Positions 48,410-64,000 of a stretch of DNA of 64,000 bases are shown here, piece after piece. The DNA comes from Alphaproteobacteria bacterium (lineage in GTDB: Bacteria > Pseudomonadota > Alphaproteobacteria > Bin95). The position numbers were made by a program, and so were the translations under genes. The notes under the pieces were generated by a model. It searched no databases. It had not been told where the DNA came from and was given only the letters and a program-made list of their open reading frames with translations. Each line of letters starts with the position of its first letter. Positions within the stretch are counted from its first letter, which is position 1. The stretch spans positions 3,392,001-3,456,000 of the forward strand of contig CBDBGH010000003.1 in NCBI GenBank assembly GCA_965205265.1. The letters run 5' to 3'.

Positions 48410-48582
48410 CCACGGAATTTTGTCGATCATCCCCCTGGCGCGGCATGCCGCGCCAGGGATGGACGGCGGCATGCAGGGGCATGATTGGATGCAGGAAACC
48501 CCATACATGGCCGGTTTGACAGGGCCGGATCTCAGGCCCAGACCGGCTCCCGGAAGCATGGTGCTGCGGGAGTTGCCGGGAG

Positions 48583-48804
48583 ATGCCGGAGAGCGGGGAG
48601 CGCGGGATTGCCGCTACGGGCGGCGCGGCGGCGAACGACAACCCCGGCCCGGGGGCCGGGGCAGGTGGCGAGGCGGAGGCGCGGGTCGATGCCGCCGTGG
48701 CGACGCTGGCCCGGCTGCTCGGGCGGCGCATCGCGCGCGAGCAATTCGACAGGCGCGCCGCGGCCAACGACAATGCACCGACCGGGGAGGCCGGCGAGAG
48801 ATAG
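48583..48804 (+). CDS. Small protein upstream of the serine recombinase
   Basis: Helical core VATLARLLGRRIARE flanked by two AANDN motifs; ends just before the recombinase RBS. Confidence 0.5.
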   Translation: MPESGERGIAATGGAAANDNPGPGAGAGGEAEARVDAAVATLARLLGRRIAREQFDRRAAANDNAPTGEAGER

Positions 48805-48817
48805 GAGACCTTTCATC

Positions 48818-50501
<1,684 letters not shown>

Positions 50502-52388: not shown

Positions 52389-54757
<2,369 letters not shown>

Positions 54758-55122
54758 GCCGCCGCCTGCTCAGGTAGAGCGGCCACGACAATCAGGGCCC
54801 GCGGGGATCGTCTCCGCGCGCCGTCTCTTCTCCGACCCGACGGCCTGCCGCGACAATCAAAACCATTCCCGAAAACACTGTTTGTCGCGCCGCGACAATC
54901 AAAACCGGAAACCGCTTGCAATCCACCCCCCGCGCGGCAATCATCAACTCGCCGCTGCCGCCGGGAATCTCATCCTGATTGACGCGCAGCTCTCACCCAG
55001 ATTGTCGCGCCATAGTAGCCTGATCTGAAGGGGCACGTATCAGCGACGACGGGGGCTCCAGCTTGTATTAGACGCCGGTCCCCCTTACGTTGCCACCCGA
55101 CGAAGCCAAACCCCGACGTCGT

Positions 55123-56601
55123 ATGTTCTCTATCCTCCATGTGTCCGACCTGCACAGGTCGGAGGCCGAACCGATATCCAACCAAGCTCTGATTGCGTCT
55201 CTACTGGCGGACCAAGGCCGATTTTCCCTCGAGACTCCGCCGATTCGCCAACCCGATGCGATGGTAGTAAGCGGCGATATTGTCGCTGGGGTACCGCTGG
55301 GGGAACCGGACTATGTCAACTCGCTTAAGGAACAGTACGCGATTGCTCAGGACTTCCTGGTCCGACTGACTGAACGCCTCTTTGGGGGCGACCGTACGCG
55401 CGTCGTATTGGTCCCGGGAAACCACGACTGCTGCTGGAACACTGCGATTAGCGGAATGACACCGGTGCCGGAGGATGACACTCCGAGGGACTTGGTAGGC
55501 AAGTTGGAGTTCCCCGATTCTCCGTTCAGGTGGAGTTGGCATGACCGAAAGCTCTACAGAATTTCGGATCCCGATTCATATGCGCGCAGGCTGGACAACT
55601 ACTGGGACTTCGTGGAGGAGTTCTATGTGGGTTCGGACCTGGCGTTCCCAATTCGACGGGACACTGGATACAACCTGTTCGAAATGAACGGCGGACAGAT
55701 CCTGGTAGCCGCCTTTGAGTCGCTCCATGGAAACGACTGCTTTTCTTCCAGGGCGCACTTCGAACCGGAAGCTGTGGCGAGTGCAGCGTTGCGGCTAAAC
55801 GACGAACGGAGGTACTACAACCTCCGCATCGCACTTTGGCATCACGGACTACACAGCCAACCATCGTACCGATCGGATTATCTCCCCATCAGTTCCGTAT
55901 ACGAGCTTATTGGGCACGGCTTTCGACTCGGTCTCCACGGTCACCAGCACTTCGCGGAGATCGGTTCCCATTACGTCCGCGTTCCGGGCGAGCCAGAGAT
56001 GGCAGTGGTGTCGGCGGGTTCCCTGTGCGCAGGAGCGAGGGAACTTCCTCGAGGAGTCAACCGCCAATACAACGTGGTCGTCGTATCCGACGACTATGAC
56101 AAAATTGACGTGCATGTGCGGGAAATGACGCGGGGAAACCACTTTATGCCGAGCAGCGGAGCGTCGGGATTTGCGAACGGACTCGTCCAATTGCAGCTCT
56201 CGTCGCCCGGTGCGAACGGAAAGCCAATGATCGACATCGACTATACACGCCGCAACGAACTTATCATGAAGGCCGAGTCCCACCTGCGGGTTGGTCGTCC
56301 GGCCGAGGCGTTTGGAATTCTCAGTGGAATTGACTGCGAGAACGAACCATATGCCCGCCGGTTGTTGATCCAGGCAGCCGAGCAGTCGGAACAGTGGGAA
56401 GATCTTGTGGCTGTTCTTTCTGATCCGCAAAACTCTGAAGAAGTAGTCCAGTTAGTCGAGGCGCTCACTCGGCTTCGAAGGATTGAAGACGCCATAGCCT
56501 ATTTGCGAGAGTCTGATCGGCCCCCTTTGGCAGATCATGTCCGACGAGATCTGCAACGCCGGCTTGAACGGCGAGCGGCAATTTCCGGGAGGAAAGCGTG
56601 A
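55123..56601 (+). CDS. Calcineurin-like metallophosphoesterase with C-terminal TPR-like helices
   Basis: SDLH, SGD, GNHD, HH, HGHQH; helical C-terminus; alternative TTG start at 55090. Confidence 0.88.
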   Translation: MFSILHVSDLHRSEAEPISNQALIASLLADQGRFSLETPPIRQPDAMVVSGDIVAGVPLGEPDYVNSLKEQYAIAQDFLVRLTERLFGGDRTRVVLVPGNHDCCWNTAISGMTPVPEDDTPRDLVGKLEFPDSPFRWSWHDRKLYRISDPDSYARRLDNYWDFVEEFYVGSDLAFPIRRDTGYNLFEMNGGQILVAAFESLHGNDCFSSRAHFEPEAVASAALRLNDERRYYNLRIALWHHGLHSQPSYRSDYLPISSVYELIGHGFRLGLHGHQHFAEIGSHYVRVPGEPEMAVVSAGSLCAGARELPRGVNRQYNVVVVSDDYDKIDVHVREMTRGNHFMPSSGASGFANGLVQLQLSSPGANGKPMIDIDYTRRNELIMKAESHLRVGRPAEAFGILSGIDCENEPYARRLLIQAAEQSEQWEDLVAVLSDPQNSEEVVQLVEALTRLRRIEDAIAYLRESDRPPLADHVRRDLQRRLERRAAISGRKA

Positions 56602-57306
56602 ACACAAAAAAAATTCCGCTCCAGGTCAAGAGTGATCGCGTCATCGAGTTGTTCGCCCGAGACATATACCAGTCTCCGCTTTCACTGCTTCGCGAGAACG
56701 TCCAGAATGCCTTCGATGCCATTCTGATGAGGAGGCGTGCCGGTGACGAATTCTCACCGAAAATTGATATTTGCCTATGCGCTGAGACAGTAACGGTCAG
56801 CGACAACGGCAACGGAATGACGCCTGACGAGCTGGAGAAAAACTTCTGGTATGCGGGCAACAGCGGAAAGAACACCGAAGACGCCAAGAATGCAGGGGTC
56901 GTAGGCACGTTCGGCATTGGAGCTATGGCGAACTTCGGCATCGCCGAGCGGTTGCAAGTGGAAACGGAGAGCTCGGCTACCGGCGAGCGGTCTCGAAGCA
57001 GTGTAGATAAGGAAGATCTGTCGATCAATCAGGAGTGCATCGATCTCATCTTATTGGACTCGCGGGACGAGCCCGGTACGACAGTAACGGCATATCTTGC
57101 ACCCGACGAGCGACTGGATGTCGACGAGGCCCGTCGATACCTATCGGACTTCGTGTCACTTCTTGCGGTTCCCGTGTATGCGCGTTTCAGTAAGTCCCGG
57201 CCGGTGATTACGGAAAGTCCCGGCCGGCATGACCGGGGCGATTTGAGTTCGGCTTTCGGGTGCGCCGACTCGGCGTCTACCCCCTGGCATTTTGCCGGGG
57301 GGTGGC

Positions 57307-58860
57307 ATGCCGGGACGGAAGCAGACGAGACGAACGACAGTGAAGGACGTCAGGGCGATCCTGCGGCTGAGCCATGGGCAGGGTCTGTCGGAGCGCGAGG
57401 TCGCGGGGCGGCTGAAGCTCTCCAGGGCGACGGTGTCGACCTATCTTCTTCGGGCCCGGGAGGCGGGCCTGTCGAGCTGGCCGCTGCCGGCGGTCTACGA
57501 GGACGACGCGGTGCTGGAACAGTTGCTGTTCCGGCGCATGGGCCGCCCGCCGCGGGATACGCGCCAGCCGCACTGGCCGACGGTGGCGGCCGAGCTGAAG
57601 CGCAAGGGCGTGACGCTGAGCCTGCTGTGGCAGGAATACCGGGCCGCGCATCCGGACGGCTACGGCTATACCTGGTTCTGCGACGCCTTCAGGGCCTTCG
57701 AGCGCCGCACGCATGCGAGCTGGCGCAACCGGCACGAGGCCGGCGCGGTGATGCAGACCGACTATGCCGGCCAGACGGTCGAGATCGTCGATCCCGAGAC
57801 CGGCGAGATCCACGAGGCGCAGATCTTCGTCGCGGTGCTCGGCGCCTCGTCCTACACCTTCGCGACCGCGAGCCTGACGCAGCGCCTGCCGGACTGGATC
57901 GCTGGGCAATGCGAAGCGCTGGCCTTCTTTGGGGGCGTGCCGAAAAGCATTGTCTGCGACAACCTGAAGGCGGGGGTGGCGAAGCCGCTCTGGTTCGAGC
58001 CGACGCTGAACGCGACCTTCGCGGCGCTGGCGGAGCACTACGACACCACCGTCCTGCCGACGCGGCCCCGAAAACCCCGGGACAAGGCGAAGGTCGAGGT
58101 TGGCGTGCAAGTGGTCGAGCGCTGGATCCTGGCCCGCCTCAGGAACCGGCGCTTCTTCTCCCTCGGGCAGCTCAACGCGGCGATCCGCGTCCTCCTGGAC
58201 GAACTCAACGACCGGCCCATGCGCCATCTCGGCCAGAGCCGGCGCCAGATGTTCGAGGCCATCGAGCGCGCCGCGCTGGCGCCGCTGCCGAAGACCCCCT
58301 TCGAATACGCCGAGTGGAAGACCGCGAAGGTCCACCCCGACTACCATGTCGATGTCGAGCGCACCTTCTACTCGGTCCCTCACAGCCTGATCGGGCGCAC
58401 GGTTCGGATCCGCCTCACCCGGCGCACGGTCGAGGTCTTCCATAGCCACAGGCGCGTCGCCGCCCATGCACGCCGGTCTCCCTATGGCGGGCATGTCACC
58501 GTTGCCGCTCATATGCCCAGCGCGCATCGCCGCTATGCCGATCGCACCCCGGCAAGCCTGATCGGCAGGGCAAGACGCATCGGCCCCAACACGGCCGTGC
58601 TGGTCGAGCGCATGATGCGCGACAGGCCGCATCCCGAGCAGGGCTATCGAAGCGCCATGGGCGTCATATCGCTCTCCCGGCGATACGAGGCCGAAAGGGT
58701 CGAGGCCGCCTGCGAGCGCGCGCTCACCATCAATGCGCTCAGCTACTCCTCGCTCACCGCCATCCTCCGGTCCGGCCTCGACCGCGCCGCGCCCGAGCGT
58801 GAGCCCCTCCTGCCCCTGCCGGCGCACGACAACATCCGCGGCCCCGCCTACTACCGATGA
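57307..58860 (+). CDS. istA: IS21 transposase
   Basis: QTDYAG, VCDNLK, KAKVE, YSVP. Confidence 0.93.
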
Positions 58861-58874
58861 ACGAAGGACTTCCC

Positions 58875-59651
58875 ATGCTGACACATCCGACCCTCGACCA
58901 GATGCACGCCCTTGGCCTCAAGGGTATGGCCGAAGCCTGGCGCGACATGGCCGAAAAGGGCCAGGCATCCGAACTCGACCGCGAGGAATGGCTCGCCCTC
59001 ATGCTCGACCGCGAAGCCGCAACACGCGCCGACAGGCGGCTCACCAACCGCCTCCGGCTGGCCAGGCTGCGCTTCCCCGAGGCCTGCATCGAGGATATCG
59101 ACTTCGATCCCGCCCGCGGCCTCGATCGCCGCAATATCCTCTCCCTCGCCCAGGGCGAATGGCTCAAGACCCACGACAATCTGATCCTGGTCGGCCAGAC
59201 CGGTACCGGAAAGACCTGGCTCGCATGCGCCTTCGGACATCAGGCCGCAAGGCTCGACCGCTCTGTCCTCTATGTCCGCATGCCCCGTCTCTTCGAGGAC
59301 CTCGCCATGGCCCGCCTCGACGGAAGGCTCCCCAGGCTCATCGACAAGCTCGCAAGGGTCCAGCTCCTCATCCTCGACGACTGGGGTACACACGGCCTCG
59401 CCGACCGCCAGAGGCTCGATCTCCTCGAAATCTGCGAAGAACGATACCGTCGGCGGTCCACCCTCATCACCGCACAGCTCCCCGTCGCCAAATGGCACGA
59501 CCTCATCGGCGAAGCCACCGTCGCTGACGCCATCCTCGACCGGATCGTCCACAACGCCCACCGCATCGACCTGAAAGGCGAAAGCATGCGAAGGAAAAAC
59601 GCCAGGCCCGACTTGACCCCGGCCGCCGCCGCGGAAGACAATCCCGGCTGA
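58875..59651 (+). CDS. istB: IS21 helper ATPase
   Basis: [20 protein letters not shown]. Confidence 0.93.
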
Positions 59652-61666
59652 CCAAAACCAGGCGCCCGGAGCCACGCTCAAGGCCGGCCGCGACTTAATG
59701 AAATCCGCGGCCGGGACTTAGTGAAATACCCGGCCGGAATCACTGAAATCCGCACCGTGTACGTGAACGGAATCCAGGCGAGCGGTCGATGCGTCGAGGA
59801 AATCGTACCCCTTCCGCCCATTTCCTGGCGTGGACAAAGCTACGAGACTGCGGGCCGTCTTGCTGCGAATGTGGACTTGGTTGTCGCACAAGACGGTGCC
59901 GTGTGGGCGCGCTTCGACAGTATTACCTGGTCGGGATACGAGATGCAGGGTTCGATGACTCTGCGGAGCGATGTGCCGGGTCTGCGTACGTACCGGAACG
60001 GATTTGGATTGGCAACCGTGGGCGCGGCGACCGCCTACCAGTTCGGCGGCGTCGTAGACCTAATGGAGTTGTACCCGACAGCGGGAAGGGAAGCGCTGAC
60101 ATCTTCGAGCATGCAGTTGCTCCAGTCGATGCTTACTCATGTCGACGAAATCGTGTCTCTATTGTTGTCGAGCAGGCATGAGTCCGACTCTAGCACTGCA
60201 TTCATGAACTGGGTCGTGAATAACTCCAGATATGACCTATGTGACCGAATCCGGATCAGCACGGACGGAGATGAACATCTTGAATTGAATATAGTGAAGG
60301 CGAATGCGGACAGGGAGTTTCGCATCTATTCCGGTGCTGATCGAGGTTTAATTGAACAACTGTCGAGTGACGATTCACCTTTGTTACTTTTTGCGCGCTA
60401 CGACCCGAGACGACGCTGCCAACGCGAGTACATCCAGCGGTACTGCGCCGAACATGTCTCCGAAATTGTGGACGAGCCCCAAGTCACTGAGACACTCCCT
60501 GATTCGAGTTACAGTCATTCGGAGTATGGGACCGCGTTCCGAATCCAGTCTATCCTTGACAAGGATTACCTACTTTCGACAGAGGTACACTTTGGCCACA
60601 TAACCCACCGAGTTCCAGTAATCGCCAATGAGGTAGACAACAAAGTAATCATCACCGTCGAGCGCGACTTGAGCGCAATCGACCTAATCGTTGGATTGTA
60701 TGAAAACGAATACTCCGCATTCGGTGCGATGGTTGGCGATTTCGTTCGCGGCGTCGTCTTCCCGCGCATATCTCGTTACGTTCCAACCAGTCAAACTCAC
60801 GGCACTCAAGCGTTTTTGCAAACGATTCGACGCCAGCGGGAGGCGTTTGAGTACGAGCGGGACGACGTCACGGAGTTTCCAGATCTAGCATTTTGGGACG
60901 ATGTTCGCAACGACCGTATTAGCATCGCCGAGGCAATCAAGCGAACAATGGCCACGTCCCGTAGCGACGTTCAGGTGCTCGACTCGGCGTCCGCCGCGAG
61001 TATGGGTGAGGTATTGCCCGATGTAGCGGCCAATCAGCATGCGCTACAAGGGGACAACCAAGACGATGAATTGGCCCTTGGTGCGCTTCCTGCCATTGTC
61101 CGTTCCGACATATCTTGCGGTGCCAAACTGTTGACAATTCCGGTCGAGGAACGCGATTTGGCCGGATACAGGTGCTTTCTGGCGCTTGGCCGTAAAGCAA
61201 GGGAGGACAAGGCGGAGTTTTTCCTCCAACCACACACCACATCTATCGTGTGGGGTGGGCAGCGAGTGTTGTTTATTTTTGCCCACCGCTCCGAGGACTA
61301 CGGGTTGTATTATGATCTCGAGTCACGAAAGCTGATTTCCAACAAACCGGGTGGAGGACGTTATCCGACCTGCACAATTTTTCTGGCTAACCAAGTCTAC
61401 ATACCAATTCCAGTCGACATTCAGTCGTGCTTTCTACTTTCAGAAGGTGAACGCAAACGGTTTTTGGTCAGGGATGATCTGCTCTCGGTCGGCCCCAATA
61501 TCCGTGAATGACCATGGGAGTCCTGACCATAACAGCACTATCGCTTGGCGGAGGCCGTTCAGGCTTATCCGGCACGTTCAGGACAACACTAACCAATCTA
61601 AAGTCACAGCGGTGAACACATCTAAAGAAAGATTGAGGCGATGATAGGTTTCGTTATCATTGAGGG

Positions 61667-62143
61667 ATGGAATCCTTGACCCGCATTATATGGCAATGGC
61701 TTCTTAGCCTATCGGGTCTGTTCACCGTTATCGGCACAGTTCATGAGCTCTTTACTCGCCCCAATACAGACGTGTTGGCGGAGTCCATGGGCGCATATGT
61801 GAGCCTGCATAGCATTTACCTCGGCGTTTTGGGGGTAGGCGTTGTTCTAACTGTGCCTGCTGCCTTGGCCATTTGGCGTTGGTGGGTCGACACGCACAGC
61901 CTCAAGTCGAAATTTCTGCGACTGGAGACAAAACTGGAGAGAAGGGCGAGTCTTGAAGTTTATGACATCGCCGATATACGGGATCTACGATTTGCCCTTG
62001 CGGAACTGGGAATCGAATATCCTCTGGACGGTATTGACGCGAGGGACAGGCAATACGTTACAAAGGATTTGCTGGCCGCGTGTCGCAACGGGAAAGTGAA
62101 ATACGCTCGAACGTCATGGCAGCGGCGCGGAAAGCCGGATTGA
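61667..62143 (+). CDS. Hypothetical membrane protein with two TM segments and a small soluble C-terminus
   Basis: Two hydrophobic stretches in the first 70 aa or so. Confidence 0.6.
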   Translation: MESLTRIIWQWLLSLSGLFTVIGTVHELFTRPNTDVLAESMGAYVSLHSIYLGVLGVGVVLTVPAALAIWRWWVDTHSLKSKFLRLETKLERRASLEVYDIADIRDLRFALAELGIEYPLDGIDARDRQYVTKDLLAACRNGKVKYARTSWQRRGKPD

Positions 62144-62194: not shown

Positions 62195-63238
62195 CTACGG
62201 TAGGCGCGCTGTTGCAGAGCGCTGTCTGCCGCCATCCTCGGGAAGGGGTTCCGCGTTATCCTCCGCGTGCCCATTCCAAAGCAGCCCCGGATGTGGAATG
62301 CGATAGTACCCGTCAGCGTCCTTCTTTGAGTTTTTTGGCTTCGGCGCCACTGTCGTCTTCTCAAACCGTCCCCTGGCGCCGCGCAGATACGATTCGACGA
62401 CTTCCGCGCATACCCACTTGCGTCCAAGCCGTTCGGCGACCTCGCCCGTAACGCAGCTCCCGGCGAATGGATCCAGAACCACATCGCCCGGATCGGTGAC
62501 CATCCTCACGAAATACTCCGGCAGGGCGGCCGGGAAACGGGCGGGATGCACCTTGATCCCGTTGTCCTTGCAGTAGCGCAGATAGCTGCTGTTGCTTTCG
62601 GTATTCGGAATGGCGATCAGGTTCGGAGGGATCGCGGCGCCATTGTCGGTGGAAAACTTGCTGCTGATATCGTGTCCCGATGGACGCAGCATTGGCTTGT
62701 AGCCATTGTTCAGCAAGCTCTTCATGCTGTCACTGTAAGGTTGCAGGACCCGGCGATTGCTCGCGCGCGGCCAAGGCGTCTTGGACAACCACCATACGGT
62801 ATTGATCCCGTCCTTGACCCGGATTCGCCTTACGTTGACCCATTCCGCTGGCGTAGGAAGCTTCGACGGATTCCACCAGTAGAACTCCTGAGCCAGATGA
62901 AATTCGTATTCCTCGCACAGCATGATCAACAGCTTGAAATGATAGAGGCTGCGCACGGGTATTCCGGGCTTCCACGCGCCGCCGAGATCGATCACAAGGC
63001 TTCCGTCGTCCCTGAGGATGCGGCGGAACTGCCTCGCGAAATCGCGAAACCATTCGAGATAATTATCCTCCTGTTCGTTTCCGTAGTCCTTCTTGCGGGT
63101 CAACGCGAACGGCGGACTCGTCATTACCAGAGCGACAGAAGCCGACTTTCTGTTCTTCATGACCTCCAGGCTGTCGCCATGATAGACGCAGCCAAGGGCA
63201 GTCCGATGGAACACGCGAGGGGCCTTGCTGCCTGTCAT
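62195..63238 (-). CDS. Beta-class amino-DNA methyltransferase, probably N4-cytosine
   Basis: TSPPF (motif IV) precedes HPARFP and LDPFAGS (motif I). Confidence 0.92.
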   Translation of the reverse strand: MTGSKAPRVFHRTALGCVYHGDSLEVMKNRKSASVALVMTSPPFALTRKKDYGNEQEDNYLEWFRDFARQFRRILRDDGSLVIDLGGAWKPGIPVRSLYHFKLLIMLCEEYEFHLAQEFYWWNPSKLPTPAEWVNVRRIRVKDGINTVWWLSKTPWPRASNRRVLQPYSDSMKSLLNNGYKPMLRPSGHDISSKFSTDNGAAIPPNLIAIPNTESNSSYLRYCKDNGIKVHPARFPAALPEYFVRMVTDPGDVVLDPFAGSCVTGEVAERLGRKWVCAEVVESYLRGARGRFEKTTVAPKPKNSKKDADGYYRIPHPGLLWNGHAEDNAEPLPEDGGRQRSATARLP

Positions 63239-63254: not shown

Positions 63255-64000
63255 CTAGAGATCGAGTTTCTTCAGGTTCATGGCGTGGCGCGCCTCACGT
63301 TCGAACGCTTGCACTATTTCCGCCGGTCGTTCGCTTATCTCGTTCAGATCCCCTCCGTCCAGCATGACAATGGCAAGATTTGAGTCGGCCATGATTCTAT
63401 TGGCGTATCGCCGGGCCTCGCTGCCGACTTCGCCGGTGGTGACAATGACAATCGCATTGCTCTTCAGGAAATGGGTAAGGCCCACCTCCTTTGCGACATC
63501 GTCCAGAGACACGCGCGCAGTGTTCTTGCACTGGATTTGCCAGCGGGAGAATACCAAGCGGGCGCTCTCGAAAATCAGATCGACCTCCGCGCCGCCTGTC
63601 TGATTGGCGCGCAAGCGGGTCGCAACATAGGTCATGTCGAGGACACGCATGATCTTGAAGGCGAGCGCTTCGAGAGCGAGTCCGGCTCGATATCGATCTT
63701 TGCTCTTCATTTCTTTCAAGATCGTGGAAAGCGGCGTTCGCAATAGCGCCAGAAGCTTCGGCTCGGTCTGCTTCCGAAGCTGCTCGAGAAGCGGTTCGAC
63801 CACATCCGCGATCAATTTTTCCGTAGGCGACACCTGAAAAGGCTTGGCTCCTCGTCCAGCCGTGGTCTTCTCGGCCGTGATGTATCCTGCGCCCTCCAAG
63901 TCGTTGAGAACCAGCTTCGGAAGACTCTTTTCCGGAAACTTCACGCCGTAGGTCGCCGCGGCCAGTTTCGCAACCGCATTCGCGGGCTGCGGCTCAACGG
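63255..64000 (-). CDS. Restriction endonuclease with C-terminal Mrr-like PD-(D/E)xK domain, 5'-partial
   Basis: LE..., EVDL, WQIQCK; directly upstream of the MTase. Confidence 0.82.
   Translation of the reverse strand, partial: VEPQPANAVAKLAAATYGVKFPEKSLPKLVLNDLEGAGYITAEKTTAGRGAKPFQVSPTEKLIADVVEPLLEQLRKQTEPKLLALLRTPLSTILKEMKSKDRYRAGLALEALAFKIMRVLDMTYVATRLRANQTGGAEVDLIFESARLVFSRWQIQCKNTARVSLDDVAKEVGLTHFLKSNAIVIVTTGEVGSEARRYANRIMADSNLAIVMLDGGDLNEISERPAEIVQAFEREARHAMNLKKLDL

Follow-up and report, generated by a model that had tools for sequence, protein, structure and literature searches.

Nicastro et al. 2023 reportedly treated modules related to HSP90 and HSP70 as STAND-domain analogues that are coupled to nucleotide-targeting effectors. 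In its passages on that work, the Tiamat preprint (10.64898/2026.09.30.754977, citing Nicastro et al. 2023) mentions Hsp90-like defence proteins fused to calcineurin-like phosphoesterases, and it attributes to the same study the proposal of an Hsp90-like sensor coupled to a calcineurin-like effector. Metallophosphatase defence has been established experimentally for DS-8 and DS-9, for which the relevant sections of PMC13092281 report that the metal sites are needed and in which DS-8 is compared with SMPDL3A; as outlined in 10.64898/2026.01.15.699771, PUA-Cal-HAD collapses deoxynucleoside triphosphate (dNTP) pools on sensing a modified nucleotide. Here we describe a locus in which an intact gene for a calcineurin-like metallophosphoesterase is followed by a gene for an Hsp90-like ATPase that is split by an IS21-family insertion sequence (IS). 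The pair lies at positions 55123–61511 of a 64,000-nucleotide stretch, referred to as the window, from an alphaproteobacterium of the Bin95 lineage (GenBank assembly GCA_965205265.1, contig CBDBGH010000003.1, positions 3,392,001 to 3,456,000). On balance, we lean towards reading the pair as a self-contained, horizontally mobile two-gene conflict module, most likely anti-phage, in which an Hsp90-like switch licenses a nucleotide-degrading phosphoesterase and whose copy in the window is dead. As in the predicted Hsp90-like defence proteins, so far as the preprint portrays them, an Hsp90-type GHKL module is combined with a calcineurin-like phosphoesterase in defence-island contexts, and the proposed logic is the same: the ATPase would sense, change conformation and switch on a nucleotide-hydrolysing effector. 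Since the fusion theme appears in the preprint, it has already been predicted computationally, and the pair, which the original prediction had called undescribed, is on this account a two-gene variant of a predicted kind, the concept itself being already in print. The list of 'putative antiphage Hsp90-like proteins' in Data S1 of the preprint may include the ATPase family of the pair, and among the predicted systems in Fig. 6F of PMC13092281 are some with 'TPR' and 'HATPase' domains. That the pair is not a named system was borne out: no PADLOC v2.0.0 system had both genes matching its models, and neither NCBIfam r20 nor Pfam held a model for the pair.

The two genes are a real, obligately linked and translationally coupled module. 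A family scan in which each species was represented by a single genome yielded 80 loci for the Hsp90-like protein (31–91% identity). In 79 of them the ATPase gene was immediately preceded by a homologue of the phosphoesterase gene in the same orientation, and stop and start codons usually overlapped by 4 bp; three of these 79 linked loci were truncated by a contig end, and the sole exception (L046) retained only a 212-aa remnant of the ATPase gene. The adjacency on which the idea of a two-gene system depended was thus observed in all but one of these loci. In the window, the GTG start codon of the ATPase gene (56598) overlaps the TGA stop codon of the phosphoesterase gene (56599–56601) as GTGA, exactly as had been read from the DNA, and a putative ribosome-binding site, GGGAGG (56587–56592, forward strand), is located within the end of the phosphoesterase gene, 5 nt before the ATPase start codon. 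When flanking open reading frames (ORFs) were clustered all against all, no further gene turned out to be conserved: apart from large clusters formed by antisense shadows of the pair, no genuine neighbour family was present in more than 7 of the 80 loci. Among the hosts are Pseudomonadota, Actinomycetota, Chloroflexota, Planctomycetota, Cyanobacteriota, Bacteroidota, Acidobacteriota and Gemmatimonadota, as well as one Paceibacterota genome and three Bathyarchaeia. Broken copies were found in several genomes, with the phosphoesterase gene split in L011 and L058, the ATPase gene in L070 and L075, and both genes in L027. Among 230 cluster representatives at E ≤ 1e-30, the full-length ATPase members were all about 765–790 aa long, and no fused form was present among the 150 best representatives (none longer than 813 aa); a search of longer proteins was also empty, which is weak evidence. 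A group of sister proteins of about 700–775 aa (P0347, P0350, P0357, P0359, P0363, P0367, P0375, P0379, P0381, P0384 and P0387) matched only about the first 450–600 positions of the Hsp90-like profile and probably shares the Hsp90 core while differing in the C-terminal region. Co-folding of the full Hsp90-like protein with the phosphoesterase tail (residues 362–494) gave scores of 0.53, 0.20 and 0.00 in separate runs, against a mark of 0.32, and speaks neither for nor against binding.

The phosphoesterase gene (55123–56601, forward strand) encodes 492 aa from an ATG at 55123, with an alternative TTG at 55090. The Pfam Metallophos model covers residues 14–287 of the product (3e-11; cut-off 21.5 bits), and the five metal motifs recognised in the original prediction, D9-x-H11, G51-D52, G99-N100-H101-D102, H240-H241 and G273-H274-x-H276 in the window protein, were all invariant in 18 family members; across 105 phosphoesterase sequences, motifs II–V were invariant and motif I was at least 90% conserved. 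Together with an alpha/beta sandwich and fold matches at Z 15–26, these motifs place the protein in the calcineurin-like metallophosphoesterase superfamily. The AlphaFold2 (AF2) model (mean pLDDT 79.4) comprises a catalytic domain (residues ~1–363) and a helical, TPR-like tail (~372–491), the last ~120 residues being predicted as seven helices. The helical nature of the tail was thereby supported, but its match to a TPR profile stayed below threshold (TPR_14, E 0.0029, 18.6 bits against a cut-off of 23.5); one relative, P0231, has a precomputed PF14559 match. The tail was the least conserved part of the protein, with a mean majority fraction of 0.44 compared to 0.63–0.69.

Structural comparison of the catalytic domain (residues 1–363, VIA Z values) gave as best match a model of Bacillus subtilis YydB (Z 25.8; PDB 9a6c chain B, from the integrative YydD–YydB model), which superimposes with a root-mean-square deviation of 3.3 over 292 residues and is of similar length (481 aa), with a sequence identity of 15%. 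YydB was modelled in complex with its partner YydD, and the match may point to a broader group of phosphoesterases of this kind that act together with a second protein. Of the solved human structures, SMPDL3A came closest (Z 20.4); it was followed by Lmo2642, acid sphingomyelinase, Rv0805, GpdQ and purple acid phosphatases (Z 17–19.6), and SbcD and Mre11 matched the model at about Z 15. Most of these matches are phosphodiesterases that act on nucleotides and lipids. In the Foldseek ranking, the 50 best listed matches were phosphodiesterases, acid phosphatases, nucleotidases and Mre11/SbcD nucleases, and neither PP5 nor calcineurin was among them; a profile search of the phosphoesterase against PDB sequences returned one irrelevant weak match only. 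PP5 is a protein phosphatase of the PPP family with an N-terminal TPR, and PPP enzymes carry the signatures GDxHG, GDxVDRG and GNHE. The enzyme of the pair reads SDLH, SGDIV and GNHD instead, its repeat is C-terminal and its nearest structures are phosphodiesterases, which rejects a PP5-like identity. The parallel to PP5 and Hsp90 that had been drawn for the locus, a metallophosphoesterase-fold enzyme with a helical repeat beside an Hsp90, is therefore an analogy only and at most convergent: the motif is GNHD rather than GNHE, and YydB, SMPDL3A, Lmo2642 and Rv0805 are its nearest structures, with no protein phosphatase among them.

Among 18,950 NCBIfam models, the 'anti-phage phosphoesterase' model DS9_1 was the best match in all 18 family members (best E 1.6e-13) and the DS8 model was matched by 16 of the 18; no other phosphoesterase model was matched, and one member additionally matched three DNA polymerase II small-subunit models. 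Far below the cut-offs and about 100 residues long, the DS9_1 and DS8 matches are also what bears on a possible membership in the Calcineurin-CE immune effector clade (Nicastro et al. 2023). Only a weak partial match was obtained with PADLOC (PDC-S60, 3.9e-06). Motifs and modelled fold together indicate that the protein is most likely a binuclear-metal phosphodiesterase; among named proteins, its nearest relatives are DS-9A and DS-8, two validated metallophosphatases with anti-phage function. DS-9/PUA-Cal-HAD, DS-8 and the phosphoesterase of the pair share an SMPDL3A-like fold, and the two systems supply its nearest named sequence models, but the partner is a different one, namely an Hsp90-like ATPase. 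Membership of DS-9/PUA-Cal-HAD was rejected, as motif I begins at residue 9 and there is therefore no N-terminal domain and no PUA domain, a HAD partner is absent (in 79 of 80 loci an Hsp90-like gene is the neighbour) and the score reaches 33.5 bits against a cut-off of 420. DS-8 was rejected likewise: the 492-aa phosphoesterase lacks a fused NACHT NTPase and scores 26.5 bits against a cut-off of 790.

In the window, the ATPase gene is interrupted. Its 5' piece (56598–57178, forward strand; codons 1–193 plus 2 nt) meets foreign sequence after codon 193, and the reading frame resumes at 59762 with the last base of codon 194, followed by codons 195–776 and the stop codon (3' piece, 59762–61511, forward strand). 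The intervening DNA is an IS21-family element of 2576 bp (57179–59754, forward strand), as judged from the presence of istA (57292–58860; rve, Mu-transpos_C_2 and HTH domains), istB (58857–59651; IstB_IS21, 2.4e-70), imperfect terminal inverted repeats and a short target duplication, the 7-bp direct repeat CCGTGTA at 57172–57178 and 59755–59761. When 56598–57178 is joined to 59762–61511, an ORF of 2331 nt results, corresponding to 776 codons plus stop, and P0005, an intact metagenomic homologue of likewise 776 aa, aligned without gaps to both the N piece (residues 1–193, 91% identity) and the C piece (195–776, 88%), so that the repair suggested in the original prediction, removal of the IS and of one repeat copy, was confirmed. 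The genome carries three full copies of the IS at 100% identity, including this one, and one partial copy. Since identical copies are present elsewhere in the genome, the insertion is recent and the element active. The other copies, all 100% identical, are located at G000:C3:3524075-3526644, 4344738-4347300 and 433814-435318, and their left ends align with a small offset, suggesting a short indel in the terminal repeat. The copy of the module in the window is inactivated, with the ATPase gene split and the phosphoesterase gene intact, and automated annotation of this genome will show fragments.

The interrupted gene codes for a protein of the GHKL superfamily. Its first part (56598–57176) matched HATPase_c_3 (9.5e-11), and the four GHKL motifs that had been noticed in the DNA (ExxxN, DxGxG, GxxGxG and Gly-Thr) are present. 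E33, N37, D40, D69, G71, G73, G100, G103, G106, G160, T161 and R303 were invariant in 148 ATPase sequences. The N domain is of the Hsp90 type rather than the MutL, MORC, gyrase or kinase type: the best 60 sequences listed in a search of PDB with an 18-member profile were all Hsp90-family N domains (TRAP1 at 6.6e-17, then HtpG, GRP94 and Hsp82), and a profile of the 148 sequences aligned to the host's own HtpG with 98.4% probability (hhalign) over residues 1–216 and no further. On the N piece, NCBIfam returned 'HSP90 family protein' (3e-23) and HtpG (2.5e-14), both below the cut-offs (82 bits against 455 and 53 against 371, respectively), and the C piece, which was scanned separately, had no match. 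An AF2 model was made from the intact homologue P0005 (mean pLDDT 69.8); residues 1–530 were mostly confident, and most of 536–776 fell below pLDDT 50. The top matches listed by Foldseek for this model were all full-length Hsp90s (E 6e-22, 620–670 columns), so the fold search came out in favour of the Hsp90-like assignment, and residues 10–537 aligned to TRAP1 109–703 and Hsc82 11–662 at VIA Z 21–22.5. According to the model, the ATPase carries an Hsp90-type middle region after the N domain. The original prediction could not place the last ~550 aa of the protein in any family; this now applies to residues ~540–776, but no longer to ~200–540, which adopt the Hsp90 fold in the model. For ~540–776 there was no Pfam, PADLOC or NCBIfam match, and an Atlas look-up of residues 530–776 gave a best score of 0.76, which is below the useful level.

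This C-terminal region of about 235 aa is nevertheless conserved and specific to the family: residues 641–765 showed a mean majority fraction of 0.61–0.66, compared to 0.63 for the ATPase domain, and the most variable segments were residues 201–260 and 601–640. Residues 299–303 form a P-T-A-G-R motif that was invariant in the 148 sequences and is followed by a Glu that is at least 90% conserved. In Hsp90, the middle domain supplies a catalytic arginine in an SRE motif. The P-T-A-G-R motif recalls, as we assume, this catalytic-arginine loop; the HtpG of the host reads LNLSREMLQ, and no residue-level alignment joins that stretch to P-T-A-G-R. Compared to canonical Hsp90s (HtpG, TRAP1, GRP94 and Hsp82), the protein shares the N-domain signature, the architecture of N and middle domains and the invariant ATP-binding residues, whereas sequence similarity ends at about residue 220, the conserved C-terminus of ~235 aa is extra, and the gene is a rare mobile accessory gene. 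A canonical HtpG is encoded elsewhere in the host genome. Taken together, profile and model comparisons indicate that the second gene encodes a dedicated Hsp90 paralogue with an ATP-binding N domain, a predicted Hsp90-type middle region and a conserved family-specific C-terminus. Tiamat (TmtA) and MORC/paraMORC are likewise GHKL ATPases of defence islands, and the ATP-binding domain, but no other part, matched TmtA weakly (9.3e-06). Identity with Tiamat was rejected, as neither DUF3684 nor a NOV_C nuclease domain was detected and the best sequence and fold matches were to Hsp90, not to MutL or MORC. A weak match to REase_II on the ATP-binding domain was the only other PADLOC result; the C piece gave none, and the C-terminal 582 aa are covered by no model of PADLOC v2.0.0, NCBIfam r20 or Pfam.

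To place the module in its genomic context, we considered the 46 loci in which both flanks were 5 kb or longer. Non-overlapping ORFs with a minimum length of 120 aa were called up to 5 kb from the pair (n = 385) and compared with PADLOC models at a threshold of E ≤ 1e-10. As control, 18 stretches of 13.8 kb drawn at random from the genome to which the window belongs went through the identical pipeline. A PADLOC match was present in 36 of the 46 pair neighbourhoods but in only 4 of the 18 control stretches (Fisher p = 8e-5), and on the level of ORFs the counts were 95 of 385 and 4 of 132, respectively (Fisher p = 1e-9), in agreement with the expectation that homologues of the pair lie near defence genes. 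The four control matches included one Cas7 and one strong PDC-S24. A clear restriction-modification, abortive infection (Abi), named or candidate defence model was matched in 30 of the 46 loci, two (L004 and L019) had only Tn7-like TnsB/TnsC/TniQ matches, and four (L005, L018, L020 and L026) had ambiguous matches only. In L028 (3015–18358), the pair is inserted between HmaA plus HEC-01A and HmaB, and in L063 (3072–13520) it directly follows HmaB–HmaC; the slot next to Hma genes is one in which other candidate defence genes ('HEC' models) occur. In L025 the pair is flanked by QatA/C/D and HEC-06, in L030 it stands next to Septu PtuAB and a Type I system, in L049 next to two AbiE pairs and a short prokaryotic Argonaute (pAgo) with SIR2, and in L071 next to PglW; Type IV restriction endonuclease (REase) genes abut the pair in other loci. 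Horizontal mobility and a strong association with defence genes characterise the module, and the defence reading is thus well supported by context, while functionally it is a prediction.

Some of these neighbours raise the question whether the phosphoesterase might act on the signals of other systems. A CBASS-type cyclase gene is located directly upstream of the pair in L038 (7072–7908) and L053 (7019–7855), a capP gene in L058 (7424–8203), and the closest solved structures, SMPDL3A, Lmo2642 and Rv0805, are cyclic-nucleotide or nucleotide phosphodiesterases, SMPDL3A being described as cGAMP-cleaving where PMC13092281 discusses it. The phosphoesterase could accordingly be a signal-clearing cyclic or linear oligonucleotide phosphodiesterase that resets neighbouring systems such as CBASS under the control of an Hsp90-like regulator, rather than part of a stand-alone system. 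We give this explanation little credence, as such neighbours occurred in only 3 of the 46 loci; moreover, the neighbours otherwise change between loci and a conserved third gene is lacking, which argues for an autonomous module.

The mobility of the pair bears on two further explanations. In L004 (3223–7104) and L019 (3598–7523), the pair is immediately preceded by Tn7-like TnsB, TnsC and TniQ genes and can therefore travel as transposon cargo. It was also found on four conjugative megaplasmids, near 'ABC-three component system' genes, where the two products are annotated 'metallophosphoesterase' and 'ATP-binding protein', and on one IMG/VR contig. Considered along with the IS elements that flank the pair in the window, these records would suit a module that serves the mobile elements themselves, as an addiction or exclusion module or as a weapon between elements, the phosphoesterase being a toxin that is checked or triggered by the ATPase. 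In our judgement this is unlikely: the pattern of loss does not show the asymmetry of a toxin–antitoxin pair, as the ATPase gene alone is broken in the window, L070 and L075 but the phosphoesterase gene alone in L011 and L058, most copies are chromosomal and lie among restriction-modification, Abi and other anti-phage genes, and the pair was absent from 50,697 phage records.

The pair could also be an ordinary stress or proteostasis pair without any role in conflict, in which a specialised chaperone would act with a client-specific phosphatase co-chaperone as a bacterial counterpart of Hsp90–PP5. The true Hsp90 fold, the helical repeat tail of the phosphoesterase and the tight translational coupling are what such a pair would show, but its distribution speaks against this: among 400 other genomes sampled from the class of the host, 399 lacked it and one had a match, and no match was found in a genome of the same genus or family. 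Furthermore, the host keeps its canonical HtpG, the GC content of the pair is foreign (0.51–0.59, see below), its broken state is tolerated, the phosphoesterase carries GNHD and has phosphodiesterases, acid phosphatases, nucleotidases and nucleases as its best listed structural matches, and the defence context is significant compared to the control. A role in proteostasis therefore appears very improbable.

For the anti-phage module that we favour, the following sequence of events can be proposed. The Hsp90-like dimer would act as an ATP-driven clamp and switch, in the place held by STAND NTPases in other systems, and may detect an infection cue, either a phage protein taken as a 'client' or another infection-specific ligand. 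It would then license the associated phosphoesterase, which may degrade dNTPs or other nucleoside triphosphates, NAD+, or cyclic or linear oligonucleotides, and this would stop phage replication at the cost of host growth, by abortive infection. The phosphoesterase tail and ATPase residues 201–260 and 601–640 are candidates for contact with the invader's cue because they are the most variable segments, and the conserved C-terminal region of the ATPase may serve dimerisation or docking. An intact phosphoesterase gene stands beside a broken ATPase gene in the window, L070 and L075; the enzyme is therefore not lethally active alone. In a bolder version, which we regard as possible and hold with distinctly less confidence, infection would be sensed by the Hsp90 paralogue itself, as part of a pan-prokaryotic immune module: it would clamp a phage 'client' and thereby unleash the nucleotide-degrading phosphoesterase docked through its variable TPR-like tail. 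Such chaperone-clamp pattern recognition would be distinct from sensing by STAND/NLR proteins, CRISPR and restriction-modification, and would parallel, in prokaryotes, the way in which eukaryotic immune receptors depend on Hsp90.

Several observations weigh against the reading of the pair as an Hsp90-switched anti-phage module. The coexistence of an intact phosphoesterase with a broken ATPase fits the activator model but also a harmless enzyme. In the described proteins, as far as the preprint characterises them, effector and ATPase are fused, with the effector (phosphoesterase or HD) at the N-terminus, and the C-terminus is modular and rapidly evolving, whereas this family has two separate genes in 79 of 80 loci and residues 641–765 are as conserved as the ATPase domain. 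The similarity of the phosphoesterase to DS-9A and DS-8 is limited to the N-terminal ~100 residues and is far below the cut-offs (33 bits against 420). The enzyme class of the phosphoesterase is predicted from motifs and fold, its substrate being a matter of conjecture, and R303 is a candidate equivalent of the catalytic arginine of Hsp90, as the HtpG profile alignment ends at residue 216. Among the loci with a clear defence model, 5 of 30 rest on a lone methyltransferase (L002, L003, L024, L029 and L059), and 10 of the 46 neighbourhoods had no PADLOC match at all. Because the control was drawn from one genome and was not taxon-matched, and because the 46 loci lack phylogenetic independence, the p-values are no more than indicative. 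Full-text literature searches found no experiment on any family member and no paper on the two-gene family.

In the window, the guanine-cytosine (GC) content is 0.66–0.72 in host DNA and drops to 0.51–0.59 from ~54.8 kb to the window end, a block that spans the pair and restriction-modification genes and within which the inserted element stands out at 0.66–0.69. Beyond the ATPase gene, this block contains a 158-aa ORF (61667–62143) with no Pfam, PADLOC or NCBIfam match, a Type II N6/N4 DNA methyltransferase gene (62195–63238, reverse strand; Pfam N6_N4_Mtase 3e-37; PADLOC MTase_II PDLC03323 6.6e-122) and an Mrr_cat restriction endonuclease gene (63255–64000, reverse strand; Pfam Mrr_cat 5.2e-10) that continues past the window end. 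The 158-aa ORF, which lies between the ATPase and methyltransferase genes, is not conserved beside the pair in other genomes. The N-terminal part of the Mrr_cat gene, in L092:2-901, appears to carry a ribbon-helix-helix motif (RHH_1, 9.9e-05), which would give an RHH–Mrr fusion of ~550 aa. IS elements are present at both boundaries of the block. Directly upstream lies a second, different IS21-family element (52416–54757) with an istB-like ORF (53741–54757; IstB_IS21, 1e-63) and an istA-like ORF (52416–53918) that has a weak Mu-transposase C-terminal match only, and on the other side, beyond the window end, a DDE transposase gene and a UPF0236 gene were found. The locus had been taken for a lower-GC integrase island next to a Type II restriction-modification system, of which the base composition and the restriction-modification genes were confirmed; the supposed integrase is a large serine recombinase (48485–50500; Resolvase, Recombinase and Zn_ribbon_recom domains), which has host-like GC, is separated from the pair by the second IS21-family element and may be part of a larger integrated element. 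No tRNA gene that could be an attachment site was found in the window. A promoter consensus scan of 54700–55200 found nothing, which says little in an organism of 70% GC.

The pair is compact (3.8 kb), occurs in many bacterial phyla and in archaea, and lies outside the current model sets for defence annotation. Should it prove protective against phages, it would provide the first tested example of a prokaryotic immune switch built on an Hsp90-type chaperone machine, and it would add a third architecture with a calcineurin-like phosphoesterase effector to DS-8 and DS-9/PUA-Cal-HAD. The module would then offer a testable entry point into the recognition of infection by a chaperone clamp.

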